Shown piece by piece: positions 1,098-56,144 of a stretch of DNA of 64,000 bases. The notes beneath the pieces were generated by a model. The model was not told the DNA's origin, ran no database searches, and saw only the letters and a program-made list of their open reading frames with translations. Within the stretch, counting starts at the first letter, position 1, and each line of letters starts with the position of its first letter. The stretch is from a virus: IMG/VR virus record IMGVR_UViG_3300037504_000618, positions 8,038 to 72,037 of that record; one strand, 5' to 3'. The position numbers and the translations under genes were made by a program.

Positions 1098-1196
1098 AAA
1101 ACGCCCGTTAATGGTGATTAACGGGCGTTTTTGTTGTGATTACGCGCGTTTTCGGCGGGTTGGGACGGGATTAGGGGCATGAAAAACGTCTGTTAA
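1098..1196 (+). repeat. Tripartite dif-like element copy 1
   Basis: AAAACGCCCGTTAA-tggtga-TTAACGGGCGTTTT, TGATTACGCGCGTTTT, lone arm AAAACGTCTGTTAA ending 1196. Confidence 0.9.
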
Positions 1197-1220
1197 TATG
1201 TATGAGCACGATATAGAAAT

Positions 1221-1320
1221 TTGTACTCAAGTACAATCTTTCCCGGAAAGCAAAATTCCCTCTTGACAGTCATAGAATTCTATGTATAATATAGATAGTT
1301 GGTTACATAGAATTCTATAC
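1221..1320 (+). promoter_or_regulatory. Sigma70-type promoter with upstream TTGTAC-N4-GTACAA box and two ATAGAATTCTAT operators
   Basis: TTGACA 1263-1268, 16-nt spacer, TATAAT 1285-1290; palindrome in the spacer and repeated near 1308-1319. Confidence 0.8.
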
Positions 1321-1333
1321 CAGAAAGGGAAAA

Positions 1334-1933
1334 ATGATGAGGACAGCGAAGGAAAATTACGAGATCAGGAATAATATAGGTCAAGCAGGTGAAATGGAAG
1401 AGGAAGAAAAGTGGGAGATGGCGGAGAGCTTGTTCGCCAATCCCGAAGCTGTCCCTGAAATCATCGGGCGTGAGGAACGTGAGGAAGAGGAAACTGAGGA
1501 ATTCACCCACGTGACCAGCGAAGAGGCTGCCGAGGCCATCTTGGACTCGGGCTTCAGCCTGGACACCACCGACAGCCAAGGCGGAAGCCAGCTTGGAGTC
1601 GGGATCTACTTAAGCCAGGCGCCCGACTACTGGGCCGGGCTACTGAACCTGCACAGCTACTTAAGAGTCACGGTGCGGATGGATCGCATCGTGACAGACG
1701 TAAACGAAGTCGAGGGATTTGGCGCTTGGTTGGAAGCCGAGGGCTGGATGAAGGATGGAGGTCCCACGGAAAAGGCAAATGAATTCATAGCCAAGTTCCA
1801 GTTGCCTGAAGAGGCAGTGGGTAGGCTTCAGGTAGAGTGGCTGGCAGAGATTGGATACGATGGATTGTGGGATCGCGAGTTTAATAATCTCGTGATCTGG
1901 AATCTGGATGCGATCAAAAGTGTGCGTAGATAG
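1334..1933 (+). CDS. Putative ADP-ribosyltransferase-fold protein
   Basis: H-x-T...AILDSGF...GxGIY and GYDG...VIW motifs resemble PARP-like ART folds; acidic N-terminus. Confidence 0.5.
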   Translation: MMRTAKENYEIRNNIGQAGEMEEEEKWEMAESLFANPEAVPEIIGREEREEEETEEFTHVTSEEAAEAILDSGFSLDTTDSQGGSQLGVGIYLSQAPDYWAGLLNLHSYLRVTVRMDRIVTDVNEVEGFGAWLEAEGWMKDGGPTEKANEFIAKFQLPEEAVGRLQVEWLAEIGYDGLWDREFNNLVIWNLDAIKSVRR

Positions 1934-1951
1934 TAGAAAGGAGTTAGAGAG

Positions 1952-2404
1952 ATGGATCAGAGAGCAGAGTGGTTAGCGTATCAAGTCGGTAAAATTGGGG
2001 TAGGGGATTTAGTTTATCCTGAGAATCAGGCCAAGGCTAAAGCTAAGATGGAAGCCAAAGCGGTCAGTGATCGCGAGCGTGATATTTTCTTGTTGGGGTA
2101 TCACGCAGCGTTGCTTGAGTGGGCAGAGCTCCCCCTCGCACGGGGGGACGATGATATTCTCACGCGCGAGCGGGTGGAGAGTATTATCCAGGAGATTATG
2201 GAGCGTAATGATCTCTTGTCACTGAGCCCAGGCGTCAAGAAGATCGCCGGGCCATTTGATACCCGTGCTCAAGCTGATGCTTGGTATTGGAGCAATGAGG
2301 AGAATTATGAGCCATATCTTCGTATAGTGCATGGCTTCGATGGTAAGTATTATGTCGCCGATCCTCAAGAGGCTGATGCTAAGCGTGAGCATTTGTTTGT
2401 TTAG
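1952..2404 (+). CDS. Hypothetical protein
   Basis: ORF with AAGGAG RBS. Confidence 0.7.
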   Translation: MDQRAEWLAYQVGKIGVGDLVYPENQAKAKAKMEAKAVSDRERDIFLLGYHAALLEWAELPLARGDDDILTRERVESIIQEIMERNDLLSLSPGVKKIAGPFDTRAQADAWYWSNEENYEPYLRIVHGFDGKYYVADPQEADAKREHLFV

Positions 2405-3303: not shown

Positions 3304-3509
3304 GGTTAACCCGTCACCCTAATTAAGTTAACTTTTCACCCTAATTATCGTGAAGACTTCGTAATCTTTCACACCTAACGGCGTGCAATTTCGCAACTTT
3401 TCACTGCGTGGGGGAGACATAAAAGAAGGGCTAGCGGTTAAGCTAGCCCTTGTGTGTGTGGGTGAATAGGTTAACTTTTCACCCTAATTAAGGTGAAATT
3501 TCACCCTAT
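3304..3509. repeat. 22-bp iterons beside an AT-rich tract: probable replication origin
   Basis: RGTTAACYYKTCACCCTAATTA at 3304, 3326 and 3469, variant at 3491; T-rich 3240-3290; abuts the initiator gene 3' end. Confidence 0.75.
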
Positions 3510-4484
3510 CCGCCATTGGGTAGGGTCCAGGCCCATCTCGGCCACGAAGGCGTCGTGCTCTTCCTGGACCTCGGCGGGGAGGGTGGTGAGTTGCGCCGGG
3601 GTGAGCCAACCGAGGTTGGTTACGACGCTGACTTCGTAGACCTTGCGGCTGCGGGTGCCCTCGATATTGACGTGGGCGATTCCGGCATCCACCAGGCGTT
3701 CCAGCAGACCCTTGCGGCGGCGGAAGTATTCAGGCTCCGGTTCCTCGCCCTCGGCGTGGAAGGTATCCTTGGGAGTGCGTAAGACTGCGCCATCGTCCTC
3801 GGCCTCACAGCGTCGCCATGTGCCGCTGATCGTCTGACGGCAGCAGCCGAGCTCCTGGGCCAGGGTGGGCGCGGAAAAACGGCGGGGAGGGGTCCATTCC
3901 GACTTCTTCCGGCGCTTGTCGGTGCGGAAGATTATTTCCCATAAGCGGAAGACGCGCGCGCCTAAGTATGGCCCCCAAAACTTGCTGGCATACTGGCTGA
4001 TGCGATACCAGCCCCGGTCCAAGACTTTCTTTTCGGGCGGTTGCCAGCCGGTGGGGGAGGGGGGTGGAAGGGGGGCACCTTGGAGCTCGGCCAGCTTTTG
4101 TTGGATGAGGAGTTTGGCTTCGCGATCCCCGACCTGGTCCAGGAGATCGTAGAGAGTCTGGGTTAGTTGTTGAGGTTCTGGTGGCGGTGGTGGGTCTGAA
4201 GTTTCGCGGGGCGATTCAAGCGTCTCCTGCTCGGCGGCGACGTAGACGGCCTGCGTACCGTTGCCCGTGAGGCGTTGCAAGGTGCGCTCGATGGGATTCT
4301 TGAGGCGATGCTCTAGCCACTCCACGGCATACTCGTTCTTGACCTCGACGATGAGGTTGCCGTCTTCGTCCACGCCCGTGCAATGTGTATCGCGCAGCCA
4401 CGTATCGAAGGTGGCGCGCGTCATCTGGAGCTCAAGATCGCCGAGGGCAGATTGCCAGAGGGCGGTTGGATCTGTGATACTCAT
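3501..4484 (-). CDS. Replication initiator with DnaA N-terminal domain and HTH
   Basis: MSITDPTALWQSALGDLELQMTRATFDTWL...NEYAVEWLE is DnaA domain I-like; no AAA+ domain; ATGA overlap at 4481-4484. Confidence 0.75.
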   Translation of the reverse strand: MSITDPTALWQSALGDLELQMTRATFDTWLRDTHCTGVDEDGNLIVEVKNEYAVEWLEHRLKNPIERTLQRLTGNGTQAVYVAAEQETLESPRETSDPPPPPEPQQLTQTLYDLLDQVGDREAKLLIQQKLAELQGAPLPPPSPTGWQPPEKKVLDRGWYRISQYASKFWGPYLGARVFRLWEIIFRTDKRRKKSEWTPPRRFSAPTLAQELGCCRQTISGTWRRCEAEDDGAVLRTPKDTFHAEGEEPEPEYFRRRKGLLERLVDAGIAHVNIEGTRSRKVYEVSVVTNLGWLTPAQLTTLPAEVQEEHDAFVAEMGLDPTQWRIG

Positions 4485-4708
4485 GCGGTTTCCTCTGGCA
4501 CCGGTAGCCAGATCTCGCACAACAGCGGCACGCTGTTGTGCTTGACCACGATCCCGTCGGGGACCAAGTCCTCCGCCTCGGCCTCCCACTTGGGGTGGAC
4601 GCGGAGGTGGTCGGGGTGGGTGCCGAAGCGCTCCTTATACGCCTCTAGCGCTGCGGGCATTAGCTTTTCTATGTCTGTTGATCCTCGGTAATTCAGGTAT
4701 GTGCTCAT
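4481..4708 (-). CDS. Hypothetical protein
   Basis: ORF with GAGGA RBS, coupled to the initiator. Confidence 0.65.
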   Translation of the reverse strand: MSTYLNYRGSTDIEKLMPAALEAYKERFGTHPDHLRVHPKWEAEAEDLVPDGIVVKHNSVPLLCEIWLPVPEETA

Positions 4709-5040: not shown

Positions 5041-6042
5041 TTATGGCGCTATGAATTTACGGATAGCGTAACGATGGAATCCCTGGGCATTCGCCATCTG
5101 GGGATCGTCGACCAGGTGGGCGTGGGAGTAGATTTGCTGCACGTAGGGGAAGAGGGCTTGTCCGCCGCCGCCGGTGACCAGGATAGCGGCCAGACCATCC
5201 CCGTATCCCCACTGTGTTTTGGCCTCGCTCAAAATCGCCGTGGCGATGGAGCTGAGGGCGCTGCCAATCAAGTCCGCGATGCTATGCATTTTACCCTTCC
5301 CGCGTATCTGCTGCTGTTCGTTGATTACAAGGTCCTCGGCCTCTCTGAAAGAAAGCTCGCGTTCGCAGCGGGCGTACACGGTCTCCTGTAGCTGCTCATA
5401 GACGCGGCCCATCCCCACTTTGATGCTGTGGGATCCGTCCTCGGCATAGCGTGGGCCGGGGGCGATATGGATATAGTTGGTGGTGAAGGTACCGATATCT
5501 AAGATCCCCACGTCGGCATTGCGTAAGCCTTCGGCATCGACGAATACACCGTTCTCATTGACAATCGTTTTATAGTACGTGCCGAATGCCTCCGGGACAA
5601 CGACCACCTTGGGGATGTAGAGGGAATGGCGCACGCCTTCGACCGCAAAGCCATGCGTCCCCATCAGCATGGCGGCCAGCTCGTCTTTATCCTGCTCATA
5701 CCAGCGGACGGGCAGGCCCGTGACGAGATTCACTTCGCCAGATTTGATCCCCAATTTGTACAGCGCAGCCAGCGTTAAGACCCGCTGCATGGTCTTGTCA
5801 CGGGCTCGTGCCCGTGGTTCGATCTCGATGGAGGAATGCAAGCGGGCCATGCTCCCCACGAACCACTCTTGACCATGATATCCTATTTTTACACCGCCAT
5901 TTCCACCGATCATCATGTCCTCAGTGGGCTTGAATTTGAGGTCGGTCGCCGGGGCGATCACGCTCTCAAAGCATACGCTCGCGGCCCCTGAGATTGCTTT
6001 CGTCCATCCATATCCTGTGTTTATTCCTGCTATGTTTTTCAT
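5041..6042 (-). CDS. parM: ParM/StbA family actin-like ATPase
   Basis: INTGYGWTK, VTGLP, PEA, DIGTFTT and TGGG actin-fold motifs. Confidence 0.88.
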   Translation of the reverse strand: MKNIAGINTGYGWTKAISGAASVCFESVIAPATDLKFKPTEDMMIGGNGGVKIGYHGQEWFVGSMARLHSSIEIEPRARARDKTMQRVLTLAALYKLGIKSGEVNLVTGLPVRWYEQDKDELAAMLMGTHGFAVEGVRHSLYIPKVVVVPEAFGTYYKTIVNENGVFVDAEGLRNADVGILDIGTFTTNYIHIAPGPRYAEDGSHSIKVGMGRVYEQLQETVYARCERELSFREAEDLVINEQQQIRGKGKMHSIADLIGSALSSIATAILSEAKTQWGYGDGLAAILVTGGGGQALFPYVQQIYSHAHLVDDPQMANAQGFHRYAIRKFIAP

Positions 6043-7322: not shown

Positions 7323-7422
7323 TTAACGGACGTTTTTTAAGTTCGTTATTTATGTCACTAAGTCGCTACTTGCTACATTTTACGGTTAGAAATGACTGTT
7401 AAATCTTCTTAGCGGTCATTTT
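7323..7422 (-). repeat. Tripartite dif-like element copy 2
   Basis: TTAACGGACGTTTT 7323; GAAATGACTGTTAA-atcttc-TTAGCGGTCATTTT 7389-7422. Confidence 0.85.
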
Positions 7423-7553
7423 TTTAGTAGCTTTCGCACCTTGGCTCGCCGTTTAGCTCGTCGCCGTCGCTTTCTTCCAGACGCGGCCTTACCGCTAGCT
7501 TTAGCGGCTGCTTTTACTATAGCCTTAATCGCTTCTAGTTGTTCGTTTGCCAT
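7416..7553 (-). CDS. Very basic 45-aa peptide
   Basis: MANEQLEAIKAIVKAAAKASGKAASGRKRRRRAKRRAKVRKLLKK after a GGAGG RBS. Confidence 0.65.
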   Translation of the reverse strand: MANEQLEAIKAIVKAAAKASGKAASGRKRRRRAKRRAKVRKLLKK

Positions 7554-7579
7554 ATTAAACCTCCTATATTTTGAAATAT

Positions 7580-8020
7580 CTATTTTGCTTCTTGTATGAC
7601 GACACCCGGTCCCCCGAAATGATAGAAGTACTGGGGGGAGTTGCGCTTTCGCCAGTTGCGCAGGATGTCGTTGGCTATATGCCGTATAGTTTCGTAGCAT
7701 CGGATCCGCGCTATGGTGCGGCAGTCTATATCGCGCCATGGCCTGTCGTTATGGCAGGATAATAGCGCGTTATAGCAGAGATCCATATACATTTCTCCGT
7801 TCAGGAGTAGGCCGGCTGCTTGGGCTGCCTTGAACATCTCGTCGTGAAGGTGGGCGTCGAGTTCATCGTAGCAGTCCGTAATCTGATTCCGTCGTCGGCT
7901 GTATTGATCATGGCAGCGCTTTATTTCCCGGCGAGTCGCGCTCGCTGGCCAGGTGAAATCCTGCCGCGTGAGTGCTGATAGCGGTTTAAGGAGTTCGATG
8001 AGCGGCTGTCTAGTCTGCAT
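7580..8020 (-). CDS. Hypothetical protein
   Basis: Coupled ORF in the leftward operon. Confidence 0.6.
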   Translation of the reverse strand: MQTRQPLIELLKPLSALTRQDFTWPASATRREIKRCHDQYSRRRNQITDCYDELDAHLHDEMFKAAQAAGLLLNGEMYMDLCYNALLSCHNDRPWRDIDCRTIARIRCYETIRHIANDILRNWRKRNSPQYFYHFGGPGVVIQEAK

Positions 8021-8192: not shown

Positions 8193-8350
8193 AGATCCTC
8201 CTTTAATTCAAAACCAATTTGGCAAATGGGACTTGAACCCATAGTGCGCCACTTCGACTCCATATTTAGTGATGCTATCACTAGTCGTCCGTTCCACGGC
8301 CCAGGCAGGCGCTTCTCATCCGTAGCCCCCAACAGGCAATTGCCAATCAT
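8189..8350 (-). CDS. Small hypothetical protein
   Basis: ATGA overlaps with both neighbours. Confidence 0.45.
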   Translation of the reverse strand: MIGNCLLGATDEKRLPGPWNGRLVIASLNMESKWRTMGSSPICQIGFELKEDL

Positions 8351-10377
8351 CGTTCCTTCTCCCAAGGTCTGGCCCAGTCGGCGGGCCAGTTGCGCACTTG
8401 CCAGCTCCGCACCTGCGTAAGCGGAAAGGGGAGCGAGCACCAGATCTCTTCCCTTCCGCTCATAGGATTGAGGAGCGGGGCGGGCTTATTATCGTTTAAT
8501 TCGCGTCGCCAGCGGCCTTCATTGACGATGAGATCCATGAGCTGTATCAGGCCGGCATCACGGCCCAGCTCGTTGAAGTGCTCCGCGAGATAATCCGTCA
8601 GGGCGCTAAAGTTGCGTTTCCAGGCGGGTGACTCGTTGCCAATGGTGCGTTGATAAGGCAGCCAGCCCAGCGGAGCCCAGACCGCGTGACGGGCAAACTT
8701 GCTCTTCCACAAGATCGGCATCCAGTTATAGAACTCGGTGCGTGTGAAGAGATCGACGTGGATGTCGTATTGACTACTGGGGAGTTGGGGTAGCGCAGAT
8801 TCGGCGAAGGAGAACAGCTCGCAGCGTGTGAGCAAGGTTCCGCCCTGACTGACCAGCAGGCCCATTGCGGGCGCCCGGGGTTCATCGCTTTGAATGACAG
8901 GCTCACGGGCGAAGACGCAAGGCGTGCCCCATTCCTCGATATAGTGGCGGCACTTCTCGCACGTGTGCGCCTGGAAGTGCTGGCGCGTCTCGGCGTCCAT
9001 TTGATAGAGCTGGAACTTGTAGAACGCGGCCAACTTCTCGCGTATTCGATGTAATCTCGTTGTTTTGTGGGACTCATTATCACTATTATGATATGGATGG
9101 GCCTTGCAGGCTGCGTCATAAAGCTTGAGATAGTCCGGGATATTATCGACATAGTAGAATCCATTTCTACGAATTCTTTTTATGTCGATACCAAGCCGGA
9201 GAGCCTGTGACCGCATCTGATAATCCGCGTGCGGCATTACAGGATCCTGCGATCCAATATAATTCCGGCAGATGGGAATGGCGATCCGTTCTGGGAGTGA
9301 TATGTGAGGACGCGGGCAGTGGGAGCTTACCAATGGATGGCGCTCGCGTTCGACGTTGCTGAAAATGCAATCGTGACACGTAAGCCCTTCGGCTTCCACG
9401 TAGTGATTCCACGATGGAACACGTCCCTTGGCTTTCAGTGCTTTAACGACCTCTGTTACACTATCATAACGAATGATATCCTTAACATGAGCATATAAGC
9501 AGGAGATCTGGAGTAATGGCTCCACGTCCGGCTCGCGTGAGCTGGCGTGCCAGAGTTTTAGCGCCCACTGGATCCAGCGCAAGCTATTGCGCTCGCGTGG
9601 CGTGTACTCCTGCGCGGGGTTGATGGCCCAGCGGTTCACATCCGTGAAGCGGGCCACGGCTTTGGTCAACGCCTCGATGTCGCGTGTCGTGGCCCCGTCC
9701 ACGTCCACCTTGCGGATCACGGCCTCCGTCATGCCCTTCTGGAGTTTCTCGGGCACGGAGGCCAGTGCACGCGCGTGGGCCAGACCCAATACGCGCGTAT
9801 TCAGCGCCTCGTGGGCCTGCTCATTGAGCTGAAGCAAGCTCAGACGCTGCGCGATGTAACCCTGGGATTTATTGACGTACTGCGCCAGCTCGCGTTGGGA
9901 CCAGCCATAAGCGTCAATGAGGCCCTGATAGCCGTGGGCCTCTTCCAGGGGGTTGAGGTTGGCACGGTCCAAGTTCTCGACGATGGCGAGGACGTGCAGA
10001 TCCTCCATGGCCATCCCGCGCTTGATGATCGCGGGGACCATGACCTGCGCATCTTTGAGCGTGGCGATCTCCTGGGCGTTGAGGCCCTGCAGGCCCACGT
10101 GGGCCAGGCGACGCACGTATTGCTCCGGGCCATGATTGTCGTAGCGCTCGCCCAGGGCCAGGCCCAGCAGGGCGCGGGTGCGACGCTCCCCGGCGACCAG
10201 CTCGTAGACGGTATAGCCGTCCGCGTCCGGCTCGTCAAAGACGGTCACGGGGTTGATGAGTCCGTGGTCGTCAATGGACTGCGCCAGCTCCCAGAGCGCG
10301 TCCTCGTCGAACGCGCGTCGGGGTTGCCAACGCGAGGGCTTGATCAGCCAAGCGGGGACTTGTTCGATCTCTGTCAT
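8347..10377 (-). CDS. ParB/Spo0J-family protein with long Cys-rich C-terminal extension
   Basis: QPRRAFD, LAQSI..HGLINP, AGERR, ENLDRANLNPLEEA, HTH; two CxxC clusters in the C-terminal half. Confidence 0.85.
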   Translation of the reverse strand: MTEIEQVPAWLIKPSRWQPRRAFDEDALWELAQSIDDHGLINPVTVFDEPDADGYTVYELVAGERRTRALLGLALGERYDNHGPEQYVRRLAHVGLQGLNAQEIATLKDAQVMVPAIIKRGMAMEDLHVLAIVENLDRANLNPLEEAHGYQGLIDAYGWSQRELAQYVNKSQGYIAQRLSLLQLNEQAHEALNTRVLGLAHARALASVPEKLQKGMTEAVIRKVDVDGATTRDIEALTKAVARFTDVNRWAINPAQEYTPRERNSLRWIQWALKLWHASSREPDVEPLLQISCLYAHVKDIIRYDSVTEVVKALKAKGRVPSWNHYVEAEGLTCHDCIFSNVERERHPLVSSHCPRPHISLPERIAIPICRNYIGSQDPVMPHADYQMRSQALRLGIDIKRIRRNGFYYVDNIPDYLKLYDAACKAHPYHNSDNESHKTTRLHRIREKLAAFYKFQLYQMDAETRQHFQAHTCEKCRHYIEEWGTPCVFAREPVIQSDEPRAPAMGLLVSQGGTLLTRCELFSFAESALPQLPSSQYDIHVDLFTRTEFYNWMPILWKSKFARHAVWAPLGWLPYQRTIGNESPAWKRNFSALTDYLAEHFNELGRDAGLIQLMDLIVNEGRWRRELNDNKPAPLLNPMSGREEIWCSLPFPLTQVRSWQVRNWPADWARPWEKER

Positions 10378-11416: not shown

Positions 11417-12435
11417 TTGGTCTTTTCGACGGCGGCTTGTAAGTCCGCCTCGCTGGGCATCGTATACAAGCGTGTGGTGTCCAGATTCTCATGGCCCATC
11501 AGTGCGGCCACGCGCTCCAGGCCCACGCCCGCGTCCACGAGATTCTTGCCGAAGCAATGGCGCAGGGTGTGCGGATGGATGTCCTCCATCCCGCCGCGAT
11601 CCGCCAGAACGTAGATGCGCCCGGCGCAGGCGCGCTTGCTTAAGCGCCCGCCCTTCTGCGAGATGAAGAGGGCCGTCTCGTCGTCCGCTGCGACGTGACC
11701 GCGCACTTCAAGCCACGCGCTGAGGGCTTTGCGCGTGTCCTTGTTCAGGGGGACGGTGCGCGTTTTGTTGCCCTTGCCCTGCCGCACGATTAGCTTGCCG
11801 CTGCGGGGGTTGATCTCGATGTCTCCCACGTCCAAGGCTGCGGCTTCGCTGATGCGCAAGCCCGCGCCGAAAAGGACGTAGAAGATGGCCTTATCCCGCT
11901 TGGGCCAGAGGTTGCTAGGCGCGGCCTCATCCCCGGCAGCACGCAGCTCGCCAAGCTGGACGTTCTCATCAATAGCGCGCAGGAGCTTGTATTGCTCCGG
12001 GCGCTCAAGCCACTTGAGGGGCTTGTCCTGGATCTTGAGGCCGCCGATGCCGTCCGTGGGGTCGTGCTGGGCATGGCCCGTGGTCTGTGCCCAGGCGGCG
12101 AAGGCGGAGAACCCGCTCAAGTAGTTGTTGACGCTGGCAGCGGCAAGGCGTTTCGCCAGATCGTCGCGCCACATCCGCACATCGAAGGACGTGACGTTGA
12201 CCGGCTGAAAGCCTTTCCCATTATTCAGTTCAAACCATTCCACGAAATTGCTTGCTCCTATGACGTAAGCCCGAACCGTCGCTGAGGAGATATCTCTTCC
12301 TCGCAAATGCGCCTCGAACTCCGCCATGTAGTCGACCGTCTCGGCGACCGGCAGGTCGAGGATCGAGGGCGCTTTTTCCTCGATTGACAATTCGCACGTT
12401 TGTTCTATAATCTCTGTTGAGTGTCTCTTTCCCAT
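11404..12435 (-). CDS. XerC/D-like tyrosine recombinase
   Basis: GLRISE, GKGNK, HTLRH, MGH and RLY catalytic set intact; AAAGGAG RBS before ATG 12435. Confidence 0.93.
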   Translation of the reverse strand: MGKRHSTEIIEQTCELSIEEKAPSILDLPVAETVDYMAEFEAHLRGRDISSATVRAYVIGASNFVEWFELNNGKGFQPVNVTSFDVRMWRDDLAKRLAAASVNNYLSGFSAFAAWAQTTGHAQHDPTDGIGGLKIQDKPLKWLERPEQYKLLRAIDENVQLGELRAAGDEAAPSNLWPKRDKAIFYVLFGAGLRISEAAALDVGDIEINPRSGKLIVRQGKGNKTRTVPLNKDTRKALSAWLEVRGHVAADDETALFISQKGGRLSKRACAGRIYVLADRGGMEDIHPHTLRHCFGKNLVDAGVGLERVAALMGHENLDTTRLYTMPSEADLQAAVEKTNWSD

Positions 12436-12486
12436 CGGATACTCCTTTTTCCGTGATGGCCCTGCCCCAAGCAGGGCCATTTTTTA
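12384..12486 (+). ncRNA. Candidate LexA-controlled antisense sRNA unit (promoter to terminator)
   Basis: TTGACA 12384, TATAAT 12406, GAAC-N4-GTGC box in the spacer, hairpin plus T tract 12456-12486. Confidence 0.5.
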
Positions 12487-15478: not shown

Positions 15479-15784
15479 TCACGCTTCCATGTCGGCATCG
15501 GCGGCTCCTGCGGGGACGGGGGCGACTTTGTTTTGTTGAAGCACTTCATTTAATTCTTGGGCAATAGCTTCGGCGGTGATTTGCCGAACTGATCTCTCAT
15601 CACCCGCAAGCACGCGAACGGCGCGCTCTACGGGAGGGTTGATGCGTTCGTAGTAGGCGATGCCGATGTCGATGAGGTTCCGCAGCATGCTGGAGCGGGT
15701 GCGCCCCTCTTGCTGTGCCAGATCGTCAATGGTCCGGATCTGCTGCTTATTTGATACGAACGCTATGGTGTATTCACTTGGCAT
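15479..15784 (-). CDS. Ribbon-helix-helix (CopG-like) regulator in the Cro position
   Basis: TIAFV...IDDLAQQEGRTRSSMLRNLI; divergent from the XRE repressor. Confidence 0.75.
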   Translation of the reverse strand: MPSEYTIAFVSNKQQIRTIDDLAQQEGRTRSSMLRNLIDIGIAYYERINPPVERAVRVLAGDERSVRQITAEAIAQELNEVLQQNKVAPVPAGAADADMEA

Positions 15785-15794
15785 TATTGCCTCC

Positions 15795-15860
15795 TGTTCT
15801 CTTTTGAGATTAATTGTCCTCTTTAGAGAACAGTATACATCAAGCGGTTTTATTTGTCAA
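15795..15860 (-). promoter_or_regulatory. Leftward early promoter with operator-like repeats
   Basis: TTGACA-17-TATACT on the minus strand; TGTYCTC-N4-GAGA repeats at 15795 and 15815. Confidence 0.7.
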
Positions 15861-15916
15861 TACCCAAAAACGCTTTGTATACAAAAAAGGACGGATTTTA
15901 TGGGACAATGTAATAA

Positions 15917-38879: not shown

Positions 38880-38882
38880 GCT

Positions 38883-39649: not shown

Positions 39650-39667
39650 ATCTTATAGGAGGTTGCG

Positions 39668-40078: not shown

Positions 40079-40080
40079 GT

Positions 40081-41194: not shown

Positions 41195-41415
41195 TGAGCA
41201 GGCTCAGGCTAACACGCTTACAGCGTGAGGAAGAGAAAGCACAGGAGTGGTTGGGCGTCCTCAAGAAACTGGAGGCTCAGGGCCACGTCGAGCCGTGGCG
41301 CGCGGAGATTATCCGCCTGACCGCCGATATCTATCTGGGTTCAGAGCGCGTGGCTTATCTGCTGCGCGCGCTTGATTGGATCCAGATGCATGGAGTGGCT
41401 GACGCATGTACATAA
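41194..41415 (+). CDS. Hypothetical protein
   Basis: Coupled ORF. Confidence 0.55.
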   Translation: MSRLRLTRLQREEEKAQEWLGVLKKLEAQGHVEPWRAEIIRLTADIYLGSERVAYLLRALDWIQMHGVADACT

Positions 41416-42593
41416 CAGTTTTTGGGCTTGGACGCGCCGGAGCAGTGACTGCGGCACTATTAGCTCATCTTGGCCATAATGTCTATGGGGTGGATACAGA
41501 TTTAGACAAGTTAGCCCTGTTGCGCTTGGGGCGCATTCCATTCTATGAGCCAGATCTTTCGCAGTATGTCTATGAGGGATTGGACACCGGTCGCCTTAGC
41601 ATTACGACGGATGGAGAAGATGCTGTAAGACACAGCGAGTTTTCCTTGATCTGTGTGGGAACGCCCAACTGTGATGGAGGTGTAGAGTTATCTGCCGTCT
41701 ACAATGTTTTGGAGACCATCGGCAAGGCATTGCGGGAGCACACTACGTATCACGTGGTAGTTTTGCGTAGCACGGTGCCCATTCCTGAATTGGATAAGCT
41801 GCTTTTGCACCTAGAGATAAAATCCCGACTTGAAGTAGGACAAGACTTCGGTTTTTGTGTCAATCCTGAATTTCTCCGTGAGGGTAGCGCCATTAAGGAT
41901 TTCCTTAATCCGCCCTTTGTGTTGATTGGGCAGGAGAATAAGCGTGCCGGAAAACGCCTGCGTGAACTTTACAATGTCATTATGGCTCCTCAGATTATGA
42001 CCGATTATCGCACCGCTATGTTGGTGAAGTACGTGTCTAACGCCTGGCATGCGTTGAAGATCGTCTTTGCTAATGAAATCGGGGGGATTGCTAACGCGCT
42101 ACATATCGCGCCCCAGGAAGTGATGGGTGTTGTTACACAGGATACCATGCTCAATGTTTCCCCGGCTTATATGCGTCCAGGGGGGCCGTATGGCGGATCC
42201 TGCTTGCCTAAAGATCTTACCGCCTTACTGCGCATGACGATGGTGCAATCCCCCGTTTTGGCCGCGATTCCCCAGAGCAATGCTCTGCACATCTTGGACA
42301 TTATTGAGCGCATTTTAGCGAGCGGGCGGCAACGCATTGGCGTTGTGGGGCTCAGTTTCAAGCCGGACACCGACGACTTACGCGGCAGCCCTTGGGCCGC
42401 CGTCGTCGATGCTTTGCTCAAGGCCGGTCGTGATGTGAAGATCTATGATCCTGATGTCTCCCATGTTATGGCCGGACGCTATCGTGACATGATGGTCGAG
42501 GAGTTTGATGATCTGGAGGCTTGGGCCGAACAGCTATTCTACGCCAAGCCGGAGCTGGTACCCAATTCAACACAGGAGGAAGTTGGTGACTAG
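41406..42593 (+). CDS. UDP-glucose/GDP-mannose 6-dehydrogenase family protein
   Basis: GLGRAG, CVGTP, NPEFLREG, GGSCLPKD, FKPDTDDLR. Confidence 0.93.
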   Translation: MYITVFGLGRAGAVTAALLAHLGHNVYGVDTDLDKLALLRLGRIPFYEPDLSQYVYEGLDTGRLSITTDGEDAVRHSEFSLICVGTPNCDGGVELSAVYNVLETIGKALREHTTYHVVVLRSTVPIPELDKLLLHLEIKSRLEVGQDFGFCVNPEFLREGSAIKDFLNPPFVLIGQENKRAGKRLRELYNVIMAPQIMTDYRTAMLVKYVSNAWHALKIVFANEIGGIANALHIAPQEVMGVVTQDTMLNVSPAYMRPGGPYGGSCLPKDLTALLRMTMVQSPVLAAIPQSNALHILDIIERILASGRQRIGVVGLSFKPDTDDLRGSPWAAVVDALLKAGRDVKIYDPDVSHVMAGRYRDMMVEEFDDLEAWAEQLFYAKPELVPNSTQEEVGD

Positions 42594-42900: not shown

Positions 42901-42950
42901 GAAACGTCTGCTAATGGAAATTAACGGCTGTTTTATTTCGCGTAATCATG
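42899..42950 (+). repeat. Tripartite dif-like element copy 6 (third arm degenerate or absent)
   Basis: GAAACGTCTGCTAA-tggaaa-TTAACGGCTGTTTT then CGCGTAATCA. Confidence 0.75.
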
Positions 42951-43025
42951 CGATATCGAGGGGGAAAAGCGGAACCTCTCCCGGAATAAAACGCACAATT
43001 GTTACATATGGGGAGTTGAGGGGTT

Positions 43026-43619
43026 GTGGAGGATGATCGGAGCACGGCATTTCCGGCCAACGAAAAGACGCCGGGGCAGCGCAAGAGTCGCACTGCCTAT
43101 CAGAAGTTTAGCGACCAGTTGGAGTCTTTTCCGTGGATGGAAGAGTATTTGGAGCTACGTCAAATGGAACTGCGAGGGCGCAAGCTGGACTGGCGCAAGG
43201 CGGTCTACGTCGCGTGGGCCAGCATGCCTACGCCCAGACGCCAGCCGGAGACGCAGGATGAGCTGGCGACGCAGGTCTTGGGGCTTAGCTCCTATCGCAC
43301 GATCAGCCGGTGGAAGAAGAAGTACCCGGAGCTGGAGGAGCTGGTGGCCGAGCGGCAGGCCGCGCCGTTGCTCAAGTATCGGGCGGACGTGTTCGAGGCG
43401 CTGGGCCAGGTGGCCCGTATGCCTGACCCGAAGGCCCATCGGGACCGCAAGCTTTTCTTGGAGATGTCGGGGGACTATAGCCCCCGCAAGGCCGTCGAGG
43501 TGACCGGTGAAGATGGTGAAGCTGTTCAACAGGTGGTGGCTTTTGACCTTAGCGATATCCCTTCTGACATCCTACGGCATATCGCCAACGGCAACGCAGA
43601 TCACGAGCCTGAAGACTGA
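43026..43619 (+). CDS. Terminase small subunit candidate
   Basis: HTH (TQDELA...RTISRWK); directly upstream of TerL. Confidence 0.7.
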   Translation: MEDDRSTAFPANEKTPGQRKSRTAYQKFSDQLESFPWMEEYLELRQMELRGRKLDWRKAVYVAWASMPTPRRQPETQDELATQVLGLSSYRTISRWKKKYPELEELVAERQAAPLLKYRADVFEALGQVARMPDPKAHRDRKLFLEMSGDYSPRKAVEVTGEDGEAVQQVVAFDLSDIPSDILRHIANGNADHEPED

Positions 43620-45066
43620 AGCGCGCCGCGAGTTGGCCCGCCGGCACCTCGTGGACTTCACCTGTTGGACGTATCCGCAGTACGTGGACGACCCGGCACA
43701 CTGGCTGATCGCGGAGCATCTGGAGAAGGTGCTCACGGGCCAGATCAAGCGGCTGATGATCTTCGCCCCTCCGCAGCATGGGAAGTCGGAGCTGGTCTCT
43801 ATTCGTTTCCCGGCCTTTTGGCTAGGGCACCGGCCCGATGACCCCGTGATCTTGGCTTCTTATGGAGCCAGCCTAGCGGAGCGGCATAGCAGTGAGGCAC
43901 GGGCGGCGGTGGAGAGTCAGGAATATCAGGATATCTTCACCGAGACGCGCACGCGGCAGGACAGCCGATCCAAGCAACTCTGGCGTATCCAGGATCATCG
44001 CGGGGGGCTATTAGCCGCCGGTGTAGGTGGCCCTATCACGGGCCATGGGGCTGTGCTGGGCATCATTGACGACCCGTTTGAGAACTGGCGGCAGGCGCAG
44101 TCCCTCACGGTGCGCAATCACGTCTGGGATTGGTGGCGGGGTACATTTAGGACGCGGATCTGGGAGGACGGCGCGATTATCCTGGTGATGACGCGCTGGC
44201 ATGAGGATGATCTCGCGGGGCGGCTCTTATCGGAGCAGGGCGACCGCTGGACCGTGCTCCGGCTCCCGGCGATTGCTGAGACGCAGGAGGATCGCGATAA
44301 GAGCAATGCGTTGCTAGGACTTCCGACAGGGGAGCCCGACCCGCTAGGCCGTGCGCCGGGCGAGGCGCTGTGTCCGCAGCGCTTCAGCACGGAGGCGCTC
44401 ACGGTCATTCGCTACGATGTGGGCAGCATGGTCTGGTATGCGGAATACGTGGGCGTGCCCCGGTCGCCGGAGGGGAACAAGTTCAAGCGGTCGTGGTTTG
44501 AGGGACGGATGGTTGAGGCGGTGCCCTCCGAAGGGCGGCGGGTGCGCTATTGGGACAAGGGCGGGACGCAGGGCGGCGGCGATTATACCGCCGGGGTGTT
44601 GATGGTGCTGCACGAGGGGCGGTTCTTCGTCGCGGACGTTGTCCATGGGCAATGGTCTGACTACGAACGCGATAAGACGATCAAGGCCACGGCTGAATTG
44701 GATGGCGTGGAGACCGTGACGTGGGTCGAGCAGGAACCGGGCAGTGGTGGGAAGGATTCAACAAACGCCACGATCCGCAAGCTGGCGGGCTTCAACGTGC
44801 ACGCGCATCGGCCCAGTGGGGATAAGGAAGTCCGAGCCAGCCCCTTCGCGGCGCAGTGCGAAGCGGGGAACGTGTTCCTCAAGCGCGCGCACTGGAACGC
44901 GCAGTATCTCGCGGAGCTGACAGCCTTCCCCAACGGCGCGCACGATGACCAGGTGGACGCCAGCAGCGGCGCGTTTAACCGGCTGGCCCCAGCGGGGGGA
45001 CAGTCTTATTTGGATTGGATGAAACAGCGCGTTGCGAAGGAACAGGAAGCGCAACAAGGGAATTAA
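43507..45066 (+). CDS. terL: Terminase large subunit (start uncertain, possibly TTG 43543)
   Basis: PPQHGKS, IIDDP, MTRWHEDDL, DYTA, HDDQVDA. Confidence 0.93.
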   Translation: MKMVKLFNRWWLLTLAISLLTSYGISPTATQITSLKTEARRELARRHLVDFTCWTYPQYVDDPAHWLIAEHLEKVLTGQIKRLMIFAPPQHGKSELVSIRFPAFWLGHRPDDPVILASYGASLAERHSSEARAAVESQEYQDIFTETRTRQDSRSKQLWRIQDHRGGLLAAGVGGPITGHGAVLGIIDDPFENWRQAQSLTVRNHVWDWWRGTFRTRIWEDGAIILVMTRWHEDDLAGRLLSEQGDRWTVLRLPAIAETQEDRDKSNALLGLPTGEPDPLGRAPGEALCPQRFSTEALTVIRYDVGSMVWYAEYVGVPRSPEGNKFKRSWFEGRMVEAVPSEGRRVRYWDKGGTQGGGDYTAGVLMVLHEGRFFVADVVHGQWSDYERDKTIKATAELDGVETVTWVEQEPGSGGKDSTNATIRKLAGFNVHAHRPSGDKEVRASPFAAQCEAGNVFLKRAHWNAQYLAELTAFPNGAHDDQVDASSGAFNRLAPAGGQSYLDWMKQRVAKEQEAQQGN

Positions 45067-45163
45067 CGGATGTTTTTATGAGAGTTTACGGAGGGTTTTT
45101 GGGCGTGAAAACGCGCGTAATCAGGGGAGAAATAACCGATAATGCCTATTAACGGCTATTTTT
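45063..45163 (-). repeat. Tripartite dif-like element copy 7
   Basis: TTAACGGATGTTTT (contains the terL stop), AAAACGCGCGTAATCA, GAAATAACCGATAA-tgccta-TTAACGGCTATTTT. Confidence 0.9.
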
Positions 45164-45175: not shown

Positions 45176-47293
45176 ATGGCCTTCTTAGATAATGCGCTGC
45201 GCTGGCTAGGGTTGCAGCGCGTCGCGGACGAGCCGCCTCAGATGCCCACGCCGCCGGTGGACGTCAATGAGCTGGAGCAAAAGCAGACGCTCACGACGGG
45301 ACGGCGCAACGTCTCCCTGCTGCGCGCTGCGGCGGATAACGTGGACGTGATCCGCGCGGCTATCAACGCCAAGAAGCGGCACGTCACGGCCCTGCGCTAC
45401 GCCGTGAGCGGCCCGGACGACGACGTGGCGCAGGACCTCACGCGGTTGCTGGCCAAGCCGGTGCCGGGGATGACCTGGCGGCAATGGCTTGGGCTGGTCC
45501 TGGAAGATGTGTTGGTCCTGGACGCGGGCGCGGTGTACGTCTGGCGCACGCGGGGCGGGGGGCTTTATGGCCTGCTGCCGATTGACGGGAGTACGATCCG
45601 GCCCGTGAGCGCGGGGTTGATCCCGCAGCCGCCGGAGATTGCGTATGAGCAGTATATCGCCGGGGGAAAGGTGGCGGCGCTGACCACGGAAGAGTTGCTC
45701 TACGCGGTGATGAATCCGCGCACGCACACGCGCTATGGTTTTTCGCCCACCGAAGCGGTGTTACACACGGCCAGTATCGCGCTGCGGCGGATGGACGGCT
45801 TCGCCGATGAGCTGGATGACAGCAACGTGCCGGCCTTCTTCGGGGAGGTTCCCGAAGGCTGGCAGCCCAACCAGATCGAGGAATGGCAGACGTACTGGGA
45901 CGCGCTGACGAAGAACAAACCACACCGGGGCGTGTGGGGACCGGCAGGGTCCAACGTAGCATTTCCGCCCCGGGTGAATGTGGATACTGATTTTGACCTG
46001 TGGCTGGTGCAGTTGATCCTGGCCATCTTCGAGGTGCAGCCCCAGGAGCTCGGCTTGACGGCGGACGTGAACCGGGCCACGGGTGAGGTCCAAGAGACGA
46101 TCACGCAACGGCGCAGCGTGCGCCCGCTGGCGATGTTGATCAAGGAGATGATCGACGACGCCTTCAGTGTGACCGGCTACGCGGACTATGAACTCCTCTG
46201 GCCGGAGCTGGAGGAGCGCAGCCGCGAGGAGATCCGCAGCGACGCGGAGAGCTTCGTGCCATTGGGCGTGATGCTGGTCAACGAGGTGCGCGAGGAACTG
46301 GCGCTTGAACCACTGGCGAAGGGGGACTTGCCTCAGCAAGCCCCGGCGTTGGACCGCCTACAGCGTGACCGCCCCAAGCGCAACTATGACGTGGACGTGC
46401 CGGGGCCGGACGATAATCCGACGCTGATGCGCCTGCAGGATGCGCTGCGGCAGGCGTTCCTGGATGCGGGGACGCGGGTCAAACTGCAAACGCTTCTCGA
46501 CGAGGTGCGCGAGGCGGTGAACGCGGGGGAGACGGTCGGCGATAACTTGATCCAGGCCATCGCGACGCTGATCGGGGAGGCGCACGCCGAGGAGCTGCGC
46601 CGGTTGATCCCGCTCCTGGCCGATATGGCCGGGGTAGGGGCGGAGGCCGTGGGCGAGGTGTTCAACGCGGCGGTCAACATCGAATTGGATTGGGGGTTGG
46701 CGAACGCGGCAGCGGCGGAATGGGCGCGGGAGTATGGCTACGAGCTGATCAAAGGCCTGGGCCAGACCACGCGCGACGAGATCGCGGCGGCCATGGGGAC
46801 GTGGGTGGAGGCGCAAGAGACTTACCCTGACCTGGTGCGACGCTTGGAGGAGATCCTGGGCGACCCCCGGCGCGCGGACCTGGTGGCCAGTACAGAGGCC
46901 ACGCGCGTCTACGCGGAGGGCAACAAGGCTGCCTGGGCGCAGGTGGAGACGGAGCTGGGCGTGCAGACGGTGATGGTCTGGCATACAGCGGCGGATGATC
47001 TCGTGTGCCCGATCTGTCAGCCGTTGAACGGGAAGACGGCCCCTCTGGGAGAAAATTTTCCGGGCGGGATCAAGTCGCCCCCGGCGCATCCACGCTGCCG
47101 CTGCTGGCTGACGGCGAAGGTGATCTTCCCCACACAGCGGGTACGGCGGCGGCGGTCGCCCTTTACGCAGGCGGCGATCTTCGCAACGCTGATGCGCGGC
47201 GGCTTGCGGGTGACGGATTACGGGCAAGCGGTCCCCACCGTATGCGACTGTGGGCATACGCACGACCACGCTCACGAGGTGGCGCATGAGTGA
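45176..47293 (+). CDS. Portal protein fused to MuF-like minor head domain
   Basis: YGFSP, FEVQPQELG, NEVR; C-terminal ASTE..R, CPIC..LNG, PPAHPRCRC. Confidence 0.85.
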   Translation: MAFLDNALRWLGLQRVADEPPQMPTPPVDVNELEQKQTLTTGRRNVSLLRAAADNVDVIRAAINAKKRHVTALRYAVSGPDDDVAQDLTRLLAKPVPGMTWRQWLGLVLEDVLVLDAGAVYVWRTRGGGLYGLLPIDGSTIRPVSAGLIPQPPEIAYEQYIAGGKVAALTTEELLYAVMNPRTHTRYGFSPTEAVLHTASIALRRMDGFADELDDSNVPAFFGEVPEGWQPNQIEEWQTYWDALTKNKPHRGVWGPAGSNVAFPPRVNVDTDFDLWLVQLILAIFEVQPQELGLTADVNRATGEVQETITQRRSVRPLAMLIKEMIDDAFSVTGYADYELLWPELEERSREEIRSDAESFVPLGVMLVNEVREELALEPLAKGDLPQQAPALDRLQRDRPKRNYDVDVPGPDDNPTLMRLQDALRQAFLDAGTRVKLQTLLDEVREAVNAGETVGDNLIQAIATLIGEAHAEELRRLIPLLADMAGVGAEAVGEVFNAAVNIELDWGLANAAAAEWAREYGYELIKGLGQTTRDEIAAAMGTWVEAQETYPDLVRRLEEILGDPRRADLVASTEATRVYAEGNKAAWAQVETELGVQTVMVWHTAADDLVCPICQPLNGKTAPLGENFPGGIKSPPAHPRCRCWLTAKVIFPTQRVRRRRSPFTQAAIFATLMRGGLRVTDYGQAVPTVCDCGHTHDHAHEVAHE

Positions 47294-54653: not shown

Positions 54654-54664
54654 GGAGGTCAATC

Positions 54665-55144
54665 ATGGGTTTACGGGTAAGCGGTAAGAAAGCGCTGATT
54701 CAGTTGCAGCGCGGGAGCGGGACGGAGTTTGACATCAGCGGCGCGGACACCGATGGACGGGGACGCGCCAACGATTTCCAGTTCGAGATCAGCGGCAACG
54801 TCGTGGACGCCGTCGGCTACAACGAGGATTGGACGGAGGACGTGCCCACGGGCCAGAGCAACGTCACCGGCAGCATGACGGTGTTCTACAACGCGGCGGC
54901 AGACGAGGTGGAGGAATATCTCTGGACGATGTGGGACGAGGAACATGCGACGGCGGATTGTACCGACGTGCAGGAATATACGATGTATATCATGCCAGAG
55001 GGTAACTGCGCGGGAAAGACCAAGTGGACGATCTCCAACGTGATCTTGCGCACGCTGACGTTCCCGATCCAACACCAGGAGGTCTTGGTGATTCAGTTCA
55101 CGTGGGGCGGTTGGCAGGTGAGTCGCGCGACGATTAGCGCTTAA
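54665..55144 (+). CDS. Major tail tube protein
   Basis: Size, position, beta-rich, PEG motif. Confidence 0.7.
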   Translation: MGLRVSGKKALIQLQRGSGTEFDISGADTDGRGRANDFQFEISGNVVDAVGYNEDWTEDVPTGQSNVTGSMTVFYNAAADEVEEYLWTMWDEEHATADCTDVQEYTMYIMPEGNCAGKTKWTISNVILRTLTFPIQHQEVLVIQFTWGGWQVSRATISA

Positions 55145-55611
55145 TGTGGGAGGGGCTTATGCGGTGGATAGCTAAATCGCGGCTGGTGCGCCCGGACGGG
55201 ACCGTTATTGAGCCGGGTGCGCCCCTACCCCCGATGCCGCAGAGCGCGATCAACGCGCTGCTGCGCGGGGGGCACATCGCGCAGGTGGTGGAGGAGGACG
55301 CCCCCTCTGTGAAGCTGGAGCACGTTGTAGCTTTCAATGTGGGGCCAACGGCCTCTGGCGTGACGACGATACCGGGGATCGGGACGGAGCGCGCGGCAGA
55401 TCTGGCCGCGATGGAGATTTACGCACTGCGGGATTTGGTGGCTGCGGATCCCGCCGTGATTGCAGAGCAGTTGGCTAAGGTAAATGTGGACATGGTGCGG
55501 GATTGGCAGGACTTTGCCCGCATGGAATTAGAAGGAGATGAGGATGGAGCAGAACGAGATCAAGCAAGCACCGAAGAAGAGAACGCGCCCTGTGCGCACT
55601 GCGGAGATTGA
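55144..55611 (+). CDS. Helix-hairpin-helix domain protein
   Basis: TTIPGIG..RAADL...I..LRDL. Confidence 0.65.
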   Translation: MWEGLMRWIAKSRLVRPDGTVIEPGAPLPPMPQSAINALLRGGHIAQVVEEDAPSVKLEHVVAFNVGPTASGVTTIPGIGTERAADLAAMEIYALRDLVAADPAVIAEQLAKVNVDMVRDWQDFARMELEGDEDGAERDQASTEEENAPCAHCGD

Positions 55612-55888
55612 ACTGGCGGAGCCTTACGAGGGCTGGCGGGCGACGATCCGCACGAACATTCCCATGGCGACGTATAACGCGCTGGTGGGGGGCACGTGGG
55701 AGGAGAAGGCCCAGGCGCTGATTGCAACGATCCTGGAATGGAACTACGTAGACGACGAAGGGGAGCCGATTCCTCTGGAACCCGCCGCGTTGCGGACGCG
55801 CTTGGGCTTCGACGAGGTCAAGCTCACGGTGGCGGCGATTGATCAGGCGATTGGCGATTTTTTACGCCAACTGAGTACGCGCGACTGA
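55544..55888 (+). CDS. Tail assembly chaperone; -1 frameshift form extends to 56058
   Basis: ILEWNY.D..GEP; slippery T TTT TTA 55858-55864 with an open -1 frame. Confidence 0.75.
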   Translation: MEQNEIKQAPKKRTRPVRTAEIELAEPYEGWRATIRTNIPMATYNALVGGTWEEKAQALIATILEWNYVDDEGEPIPLEPAALRTRLGFDEVKLTVAAIDQAIGDFLRQLSTRD

Positions 55889-56043
55889 TTCAGTATATCA
55901 GCGTGGGGACCGGGAGCCCCCCGCCGATCTACACGAAGGTCAAGGTATGTGAGCGGATGCACTGGACGTTGTTGGAATACGATCAGCAACCGGCGGATGA
56001 GATGGCGGCCATGGTGGCGATCTTGAATATCACCAGGTCGGAG

Positions 56044-56144
56044 AAAAACAACCGTTAAGGGGTATTAACGGCTGTTTCTACGCGGTAAATAGGGGGATTT
56101 GGCCCCTGAGCACGCGCGTAATCACGGTAAAAAATAGCCGTTAA
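56044..56144 (+). repeat. Tripartite dif-like element copy 8
   Basis: AAAACAACCGTTAA-ggggta-TTAACGGCTGTTTC, ACGCGCGTAATCA, AAAATAGCCGTTAA. Confidence 0.9.

Follow-up and report, generated by a model that had tools for sequence, protein, structure and literature searches.

Regularly spaced three-arm intergenic elements of a temperate phage clade, possible distributed sites of an Xer-like recombinase

Phage-plasmid P1 encodes Cre, a simple tyrosine recombinase acting on an inverted-arm site, loxP, in the resolution of dimers and the circularisation of terminally redundant DNA. Among Xer enzymes, XerH, XerS and XerA represent the single-recombinase kind, which a site with one arm consensus would fit. 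The element reported here is a composite of ~100 bp found at eight intergenic loci in a 64,000-nucleotide stretch of viral DNA (the window: bases 8038-72037 of the 72,037-base IMG/VR record IMGVR_UViG_3300037504_000618). It appears closest overall to the pdif sites and dif modules of Acinetobacter plasmids and, for its three-arm build, to the TnpI internal resolution site (IRS) of Tn4430. The pdif sites, served by XerC/XerD, recombine only when their 6-bp spacers are identical or near-identical (PMC13141974). The TnpI IRS covers ~116 bp in total and comprises the 14-bp IR1/IR2 motifs with a 6-bp stagger and accessory repeats sharing 9 bp, bound by the same tyrosine recombinase as the core (PMC2847244). 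Dispersed operators and stoperators are asymmetric intergenic sites of 13-17 bp present in tens over the genome of a temperate phage (PMC8546580, PMC9283540), P1 itself harboring 22 asymmetric 17-bp operators of C1 (PMC8546580). Finally, the PeSL promoter-terminator cassettes of T4-like phages are small composite intergenic motifs at gene boundaries, for which modular shuffling has been proposed (PMC4122927).

The virus record is classed as linear, is ~70% complete and has 59% G+C. A 14-bp arm, RAAAYRNCYGWTAA, matches exactly at 20 places of the window against 0.01 expected, a count reached in 0/100 shuffles. A position matrix built from these 20 arms recovers 23 arms in 8 intergenic loci, the numbers given by the original prediction; all accepted arms score 18.4 or more, and the next best site (31593-31606) scores 16.2. 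The three arms added by the matrix, 7409-7422(-), 37303-37316(+) and 42901-42914(+), depart from the consensus at 1-2 positions each. A scan of the upstream 8,037 bases of the record with the same matrix returned no arm. At 8/8 loci the layout is arm1, a 6-bp spacer, an inverted arm2, an interior of 51-53 bp and an arm3 in the sense of arm1, the distance from arm2 to arm3 being 65-66 bp, start to start, at seven loci. A third arm had been claimed for seven loci, and seven have one; locus 6 has only a decayed one (~42988-43001, 10/14 consensus positions, read by eye). The paired arms and their eight spacers, read on the + strand, are as listed earlier, and so is the succession of orientations, F,R,F,R,R,F,R,F (F, forward; R, reverse). 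The core is a 14-6-14 TAA-N6-TTA arrangement, the geometry of a tyrosine-recombinase core, and the likeness to dif/pdif sites drawn from it holds; XerC/XerD-type half-site asymmetry is absent, arm1 and arm2 having one common consensus. TGATTACGCGCGT occurs, whole or in part, in five interiors as predicted, those of loci 1, 3, 7, 8 and 6 (partial at 6, inverted at 8 relative to 1, 3 and 7), and the interiors of elements 1 and 3 are paralogous. Three arms supply stop codons, also as predicted, to RadC, TerL and the open reading frame (ORF) 7416-7739(-). On the minus strand, an ATG at 7310 comes 12 nt after arm3 of element 2, with AAGGAG between. The elements and the main genes are collected in Table 1.

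Table 1. Coordinates of the elements, of selected genes and of recurrent motifs (window positions, except where a contig is named)
Feature	Position	Strand	Remarks
Element 1 (F)	1098-1196	+	arm1 1098-1111, spacer TGGTGA, arm2 1118-1131, interior with TGATTACGCGCGT, arm3 1183-1196
Element 2 (R)	7323-7422	-	arm3 7323-7336, arm2 7389-7402, arm1 7409-7422
Element 3 (F)	18728-18827	+	3' of integrase gene and its terminator hairpin
Element 4 (R)	29389-29488	-	adjoins four AACGGTTAGCCGT copies (29302-29376)
Element 5 (R)	37238-37336	-	arm3 contains RadC stop codon (37239-37241)
Element 6 (F)	42901-43001	+	core 42901-42934, upstream of terS
Element 7 (R)	45063-45162	-	between TerL and portal; arm3 contains TerL stop codon (45064-45066)
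Element 8 (F)	56045-56144	+	15 nt upstream of 851-aa ORF
DnaA_N protein	3501-4589		library scan
Actin-like ParM	5041-6042		library scan
ParB-family protein, 676 aa (ParB676)	8347-10377	-	largest of the ParB-family proteins
Xer-like tyrosine recombinase, 358 aa	11404-12480	-	
Xer-like recombinase, 332 aa	12808-13806	-	adjoins the 358-aa recombinase
Arc-like regulator	15479-15784		library scan
CI-like regulator	15917-16306		library scan
Third Xer-like tyrosine recombinase	17677-18678		
TET-associated glycosyltransferase (PF20691), MgsA_C protein and UDP-glucose dehydrogenase block	38094-42593		
terS/TerL	43026-45066		
Portal fused to Mu-F domain	45176-47293		
SNF2, PAPS-reductase/DUF3440, RadC			encoded in the window
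ATTACGCGCGT copies	1013, 1139, 9788, 18769, 26168, 31048, 35533, 35760, 41135, 45111, 56112, 56447		
Class B heptad interiors	L131 15294-15345; L195 3027-3078, 9242-9293; L196 19704-19757; L192 8875-8926; L199 7290-7342		

Like pdif, the phage elements are many dispersed Xer-type sites lying between gene modules in both orientations, with a 6-bp spacer that differs from site to site. The arms are longer (14 bp compared to 11 bp), and no rearrangement is seen at the phage sites in the contigs of four runs. The likeness to the TnpI IRS resides in the 14-bp inverted core motifs and in an accessory motif of the same sequence at a fixed distance, here arm3. A transposon has just one IRS, whose two accessory repeats are direct; a large phage genome has 6-8 sites, and in each of them the lone accessory arm is inverted with respect to the core arm closest to it. 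What sets the element apart from both systems is the combination of identical core arms, without XerC/XerD asymmetry, one further arm at a fixed 52 bp, a candidate enzyme encoded by the phage, a replicon that is a tailed phage or phage-plasmid, and even spacing. Cre/loxP also pairs a simple tyrosine recombinase of a phage-plasmid (here, a candidate) with an inverted-arm site, but P1 has one loxP (13-8-13) without accessory arm, as compared to many sites with different spacers. The PeSL cassettes resemble the elements as conserved composite motifs at gene boundaries; they act by homologous recombination between promoter/stem-loop repeats, while the elements exhibit no stem constraint and a site-specific-recombinase geometry. 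In this genome it is the repeat at 33240-33279 that behaves more like PeSL than the elements do. A search of the literature on conserved intergenic inverted repeats of phages, module boundaries and tyrosine recombinases gave no match, the exact arm sequences not being part of that search. Our favoured reading, a tentative one that falls a little short of an even call, is that the elements are distributed Xer-like recombinase sites with an accessory arm and locus-specific overlap regions.

Relatives were gathered by TerL searches and by a two-arm DNA pattern, and amount to 13 sequences (G001-G012 and L200; the window genome is G000), of which G008, G010 and G012 were recruited through the pattern. 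Their TerL is 68-71% identical to that of the window in seven relatives and 74% in G003 and L200, with only 27% in G007; that of the nearest named phage is 43% identical. The pair rule finds 48 elements across these 14 sequences, window genome included. Each of the five large genomes (G000, G004, G005, G006 and G007; completeness of G005, 91%) contains 6-8 elements, about one per 7.5 kb. Elements are missing from 75 loci of TerL relatives that lie further away; 74 of these loci are at 66% TerL identity or less, and the remaining one is a 1.9-kb fragment inside TerL. The element defines a phage clade. TerL scans of metagenome contigs and of genome contigs returned one locus each; L136 has no arms, and two pattern matches in the large contigs L151 and L168 were discarded as chance or another repeat. 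The two-arm pattern is present in 0/401 genomes of one sampled phylum, that of a metagenome-assembled genome (MAG) with a TerL relative, which may not be the phylum of the host. This MAG, which itself may not be the host, exhibits 2 arm matches against 12 control matches, with no sign of a host repeat there.

Within the clade, every element sits between called ORFs, overlaps them by 19 nt at most and fills the gap between genes. Among the 37 elements examined in detail, the arm2-arm3 distance is 66 bp in 30 (range 65-68), with the extra arm 19-21 bp away and restricted to a single side in every case. T12, A13, A14, T22 and A23 are invariant in 46 aligned elements, and arm3 is the best conserved arm; within-genome identity reaches 0.73-0.93 for arm2 and arm3 and 0.48-0.81 for arm1. 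Relatives at ~91-93% identity, represented by contigs of the four runs, keep elements 5 and 7 (element 7 being seen in runs X2 and X4, at ~91-92%), and the position of element 5 is also occupied in G006 and G010. The eight loci are a real, conserved and clade-specific composite element, putatively protein-binding. To note, the G006 record is classed as linear and 48% complete. The ends of its 55,168-base contig (L192 1-45, L194 15140-15168) share a repeat of ~29 bases, one arm being found at both 13 and 55152, and because of this repeat G006 is probably a closed circle of ~55,139 bp.

Spacing of the elements is more regular than that of random gene boundaries in each of the five large genomes. 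The coefficient of variation (CV) of the gaps is 0.30-0.40, compared to 0.73-0.84 for random gene boundaries (P = 0.009-0.032 per genome), and the summed CV of 1.80 was reached by 0/20,000 simulations (3.93 +/- 0.53). The lists used were those of the automatic rule, plus one G005 element and minus a duplicate from the overlapping G006 ends; the uncorrected automatic lists give P = 0.017, 0.007, 0.070, 0.099 and 0.025.

The spacers were claimed to be unique to each locus. They are, as is expected of any unconstrained 6-mer, the within-genome spacer identity being 0.24-0.36; more telling is their conservation by position. In pairs of elements with clearly homologous interiors, spacers match at 88/102 positions in 17 orthologous-locus pairs, as compared to 65/144 in 24 paralogous pairs. 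Hand-picked independent pairs give 30/36 (6 orthologous, whole-element pairs) versus 14/30 (5 paralogous; Fisher p=0.0034), with comparable interior identity (0.78 and 0.72, respectively), so that this check, put forward with the original prediction, came out in its favor. The outer half of arm1 is 0.45 identical in the same comparison, and for these genome pairs the identity at four-fold sites of flanking genes is 0.60 (519/871), below that of the orthologous spacers.

Within a genome, two arms resemble or complement each other no better when they belong to one element than when they are drawn from different ones (permutation p=0.80, 0.96 and 0.31). Because the arms of one element do not co-vary, they would be protein sites and not stems, and plain terminators are unlikely, as the original prediction had argued. 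A function in RNA would have the arm1/arm2 hairpin act as a bidirectional terminator, or arm2 alternate between arm1 and arm3 as an attenuator. Across 46 elements the arm1:arm2 pairing is 74.2%, against 71.1% in a global shuffle (reached by 0/500), an excess that would suit such a function; arm variants specific to each genome would also produce it, small as it is, and it vanishes under within-genome shuffling (p=0.80). No excess is observed for arm2:arm3 (83.4% versus 82.5% shuffled), and between 16 and 23 of the 44 cells fail to pair at 7/14 stem positions. In G000, two cores (elements 1 and 3) score terminator-like, and hairpins with compensatory changes between orthologues do occur in some interiors, but no upkeep of the arm stems through such changes was found. 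In relatives, conservation does not extend to the outer half of arm1, the elements occur in both orientations to transcription, and the arm that is left unpaired, arm3, is precisely the best conserved one. Altogether, RNA elements are the least probable explanation, and a very improbable one.

The interiors, with a within-genome identity of 0.31-0.41 (0.28-0.30 when shuffled), form unrelated classes. Members of one class turn up at loci that are not homologous, whether of one genome or of several, and may face either way with respect to arm1; 79/1035 interior pairs lie above the 99.9th percentile of shuffles (e.g., G008 3414/14662 and G007 3013/9228). Class A comprises 18 elements with ATTACGCGCGT, and class B 9 elements with four GTAGACG heptads. 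Such heptad arrays are binding targets of ribbon-helix-helix centromere/operator proteins such as omega, and the tandem heptads of nine elements of relatives occur in either orientation. Besides the arms, the element carries further signals in its interior: a ParB-type palindrome, heptad arrays and hairpins. Since interior classes recur at non-homologous loci, whole elements have spread. Interior length is nevertheless held at 51-54 bp, and the fact that unrelated interiors keep equal length argues for a spacing constraint.

This recurrence invites the view that the element is a selfish repeat resembling a miniature inverted-repeat transposable element (MITE), an 80-bp unit with 14-bp terminal inverted repeats (arm2/arm3, both ending in TTAA) that brings no benefit to the phage and is copied by a transposase or recombinase in trans to intergenic places beside an arm-like half-site, arm1. 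Indeed, inverted repeats are present, interior classes are shared between loci and are found in both orientations relative to arm1, the TerL-portal junction harbors an element in G000 and none in G004, G005, G007, G011 and G012, and at the post-TerL place the orientation R of G000 contrasts with F in the other gene-order type. A comparison with the empty TerL-portal sites gave no readable result, the sequences being too diverged. A MITE does not account for the fixed interior length of unrelated classes, for the even spacing, or for positions kept over ~70% nucleotide divergence while the interior changes. Within-genome interior identity is far below that of arm2/arm3, which suggests that these are not recent copies of one repeat; no target duplication is seen by eye in the flanks, the spacer is better conserved than four-fold sites, and the two-arm pattern is missing from the 401 genomes of the phylum sampled, which may not be that of the host. 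A selfish repeat is for these reasons improbable. An invertible 52-bp arm2-arm3 switch was also envisaged and judged unlikely: both interior orientations exist at different loci, but no strand-changing joint was found, and the segment is very short.

Which protein might bind the arms? Gene calls were annotated with Pfam, PHROGs and NCBIfam scans; of the families that large genomes have in common, only TerL and tyrosine recombinases are found in 5/5. The only DNA-binding family common to the clade is that of the 358-aa Xer-like recombinase. The original prediction pointed to extra Xer-like recombinases, and three are indeed encoded, the 358-aa one having orthologues wherever its region is present in relatives: they are 44-50% identical in G004, G005, G006 and G010, and G007 is cut within the gene that adjoins the orthologue in G005 (66% identity). 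The R, K, H, R, H, Y catalytic columns are invariant in 4 orthologues, and the closest solved structures are those of XerA, XerD and XerH. In 5 element-free relatives the orthologue profile meets distant recombinases only (best, 93 bits), and plasmid recombinases are at 37% identity or less. The 358-aa recombinase is the best candidate arm binder, whereas its 332-aa neighbour has no clear orthologue in the relatives. A perfect TTGACA-16-TATAAT promoter lies on the + strand at 12384-12411, within the 5' end of the minus-strand 358-aa recombinase gene, and is followed by a terminator-like hairpin at 12455-12481; an antisense RNA is possible.

Other candidates were considered and set aside. ParB676 has no tblastn match in G005, and the arms, 20 bp apart centre to centre, have a geometry unlike that of parS or of KorB operators, palindromes of 13-16 bp that lack a spacer. 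ATTACGCGCGT, half of TGATTACGCGCGTAATCA, has 15 matches with at most 1 mismatch, compared to 1.45 expected, inside and outside elements and also in genes, with one palindromic copy within the ParB676 gene itself; related 9-mers number 15, 9, 7 and 8 in the four genomes with ParB676 and 2 in G005. This palindrome is a likely ParB site, possibly parS-like, and ParB is therefore not needed for the arms. The analogy with the R3-I1-R2-R1 array of lambda cosB had suggested a TerS/pac site, which was dropped, as terS is not conserved among element-bearing genomes and the element has 6-8 copies. A 136-aa protein common to 4 large genomes has the look of a signal peptide or membrane helix in alignment and is not a DNA binder, and the HTH_17 protein encoded at 19314-20306 has no relatives in the other genomes. 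The palindrome-like AACGGTTAGCCGT is arrayed in four copies with 20-22 bp spacing (Tandem Repeats Finder score 118-163), between a ParB_N-like gene (28662-29300), which it follows directly, and element 4, to which it comes within 13 bp. The half-sites of these copies resemble the inner arm motif in everted order, and the array is a candidate centromere or iteron array.

The elements could instead be dispersed operators, roadblocks or insulators for a global regulator of phage or host origin, a dimer sitting on arm1/arm2 while arm3 is contacted by bending of the 52-bp interior. The original prediction had itself raised a genome-organising or looping regulator as its alternative. Such sites would silence or separate the modules of a plasmid-prophage without any recombination, as do P1 C1 operators, stoperators or KorB. 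Three elements lie just upstream of, or on, sigma-70-like promoters, as operators would: the core of element 5 overlaps the near-consensus TTGACT-17-TATAAT (37318-37346), the -35 overlap that had been predicted, and perfect or good promoters follow elements 1 (consensus promoter 1263-1290) and 3 at 67 and 18 bp. Elements 7 and 8, however, are inside the late operon, where a promoter scan of element 7 found none. The intergenic location, filling the gap between genes, suits operators, and the asymmetric dispersed sites of P1 and other temperate phages offer a precedent, with the difference that they have no fixed tripartite geometry and are also found at the promoter of the repressor itself; here the immunity switch (15784-15917, between the Arc-like and CI-like genes) contains no arm scoring >8. 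Moreover, stoperators follow the direction of transcription, while of the 28 elements with same-strand neighbours 15 run with transcription and 13 against it. A second motif at a fixed 5-6 bp from an arm recalls cooperating regulators, the even spacing suits domain barriers, and plasmid-type genes (ParM, ParB, DnaA_N protein) are present; yet no candidate regulator is found in all large genomes, ParB676 failing in G005, and a regulator offers no reason for a locus-specific conserved spacer. We consider this explanation rather unlikely, though less so than a selfish repeat. If it were true, the spacing and the three-arm geometry would point to a novel partitioning of a phage-plasmid chromosome into ~7.5-kb domains.

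Returning to recombinase sites, a reading in which we infer binding, cleavage, any recombination and the biological purpose, the element would be a ~100-bp clade-specific site acted on by a phage-encoded Xer-like recombinase, the 358-aa protein, perhaps with its 332-aa neighbour. The two inverted 14-bp arms around the 6-bp overlap region would form the crossover core, and arm3, 52 bp away, would be an accessory site for the same protein, shaping the synapse as DR1/DR2 do in the Tn4430 TnpI site. Because strand exchange in this enzyme family needs matching overlaps and the spacers differ, the 7-8 sites of one genome would be kept from recombining together. Recombination could still take place between copies of the same locus, such as sisters within a dimeric plasmid, those at both ends of a genome with terminal redundancy, or that of a co-infecting relative.

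Several observations weigh against recombinase sites. Only five genomes are large enough to judge the co-occurrence of element and recombinase, which is confounded by common descent, as other clade-specific genes would match too, and the recombinase genes of G000 have no element in their vicinity. Conservation of arm1 in relatives is confined to its inner half. The independent spacer comparison comprises 11 hand-picked pairs and 66 positions; at the post-TerL locus, 8 genomes have at least 5 different spacers, the whole element being replaced, and spacers at locus 5 match that of the window at 5/6 positions in G006 and 2/6 in G010. The promoters next to three elements, mentioned above, belong here as well. 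Homology breaks at 68/105 element boundaries as compared to 286/536 element-free ones (odds ratio 1.6, p=0.03, the pairs not being independent), a slight enrichment of breakpoints. With the other gene-order type, the homology of TerL gives out 75-100 bp short of element 7 and not in its spacer, genes between elements are reordered without an element at the junction, and the side of homology loss is evenly divided between arm3-only and arm1-only (6 pairs each). Finally, no joint in the contigs of the four runs links two elements, contigs being prone to drop rare forms. The addressed exchange of modules proposed in the original prediction is supported in part, by geometry, non-covarying arms, recombinases and spacers, while breakpoints speak for it weakly and recombination junctions between elements are absent from these contigs.

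Between G006 and G008, an identity of 77-80% extends as far as one element, beyond whose arm1 the two are unrelated. Elements are also reached by three contig joints: one (42496->42913) falls at the border of arm1 and spacer in element 6, another (44960->45062) borders element 7, and the third (29447->29900) starts within element 4. Just right of element 4, minority contigs of the probable source run skip 452 (29447-29900) or 231 bases (29560-29792); the latter deletion, also seen in run X2, removes most of the 82-aa ORF 29556-29804. The main place of contig divergence is elsewhere, at the ~40-bp repeat 33239-33279, where, in all four runs, many contigs match solely the repeat and differ from the window to its left and right (5-23 loose ends at each place in X1). 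It looks like a PeSL-type shuffling point.

A bolder version of the recombinase-site reading, which we regard as improbable, is a spacer-addressed, lox-like system in which a site every ~7.5 kb serves circularisation, dimer resolution and matched exchange. With a headful-packaged, circularly permuted genome, the terminal redundancy would often have the same site at both ends, irrespective of the permutation; the phage recombinase could then circularise the DNA and, at a later stage, separate plasmid dimers, host RecA being dispensable. A locus-specific 6-bp overlap would preclude deletions and inversions involving two different sites, and relatives would exchange matching segments only. Such a system, if real, would represent a novel principle of viral genome organisation, in which the whole chromosome is built around site-specific recombination. 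More generally, should the arms be recombinase sites, they would constitute a genome-wide orthogonal set with one arm sequence, differing only in the 6-bp overlap, a natural counterpart of the engineered lox/FRT spacer variants whose enzyme and sites might be useful tools. The dif-module idea would then extend from small Acinetobacter plasmids to tailed phages, and the legitimate exchange of modules, the resolution of dimers or a circularisation independent of Rec would have a concrete mechanism.

The gene content of the window is that of a temperate phage with plasmid-type genes (Table 1). The block with the TET-associated glycosyltransferase is kept at 50-82% in relatives and suggests that the phage DNA is hypermodified with sugars. 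Two repeats of the 22-bp unit GTTAACCCGTCACCCTAATTAA at 3305-3347, just downstream of the DnaA_N gene, are possible origin iterons. Repeats of other kinds occur in distant TerL relatives without arms: a perfect hairpin, AGGGGCGAGGACAAGCCTCGCCCCT, at 6 intergenic places of L207 (2085-20253), and (CGAGGGG)n arrays at 5 intergenic places of L232 (4104-13810).

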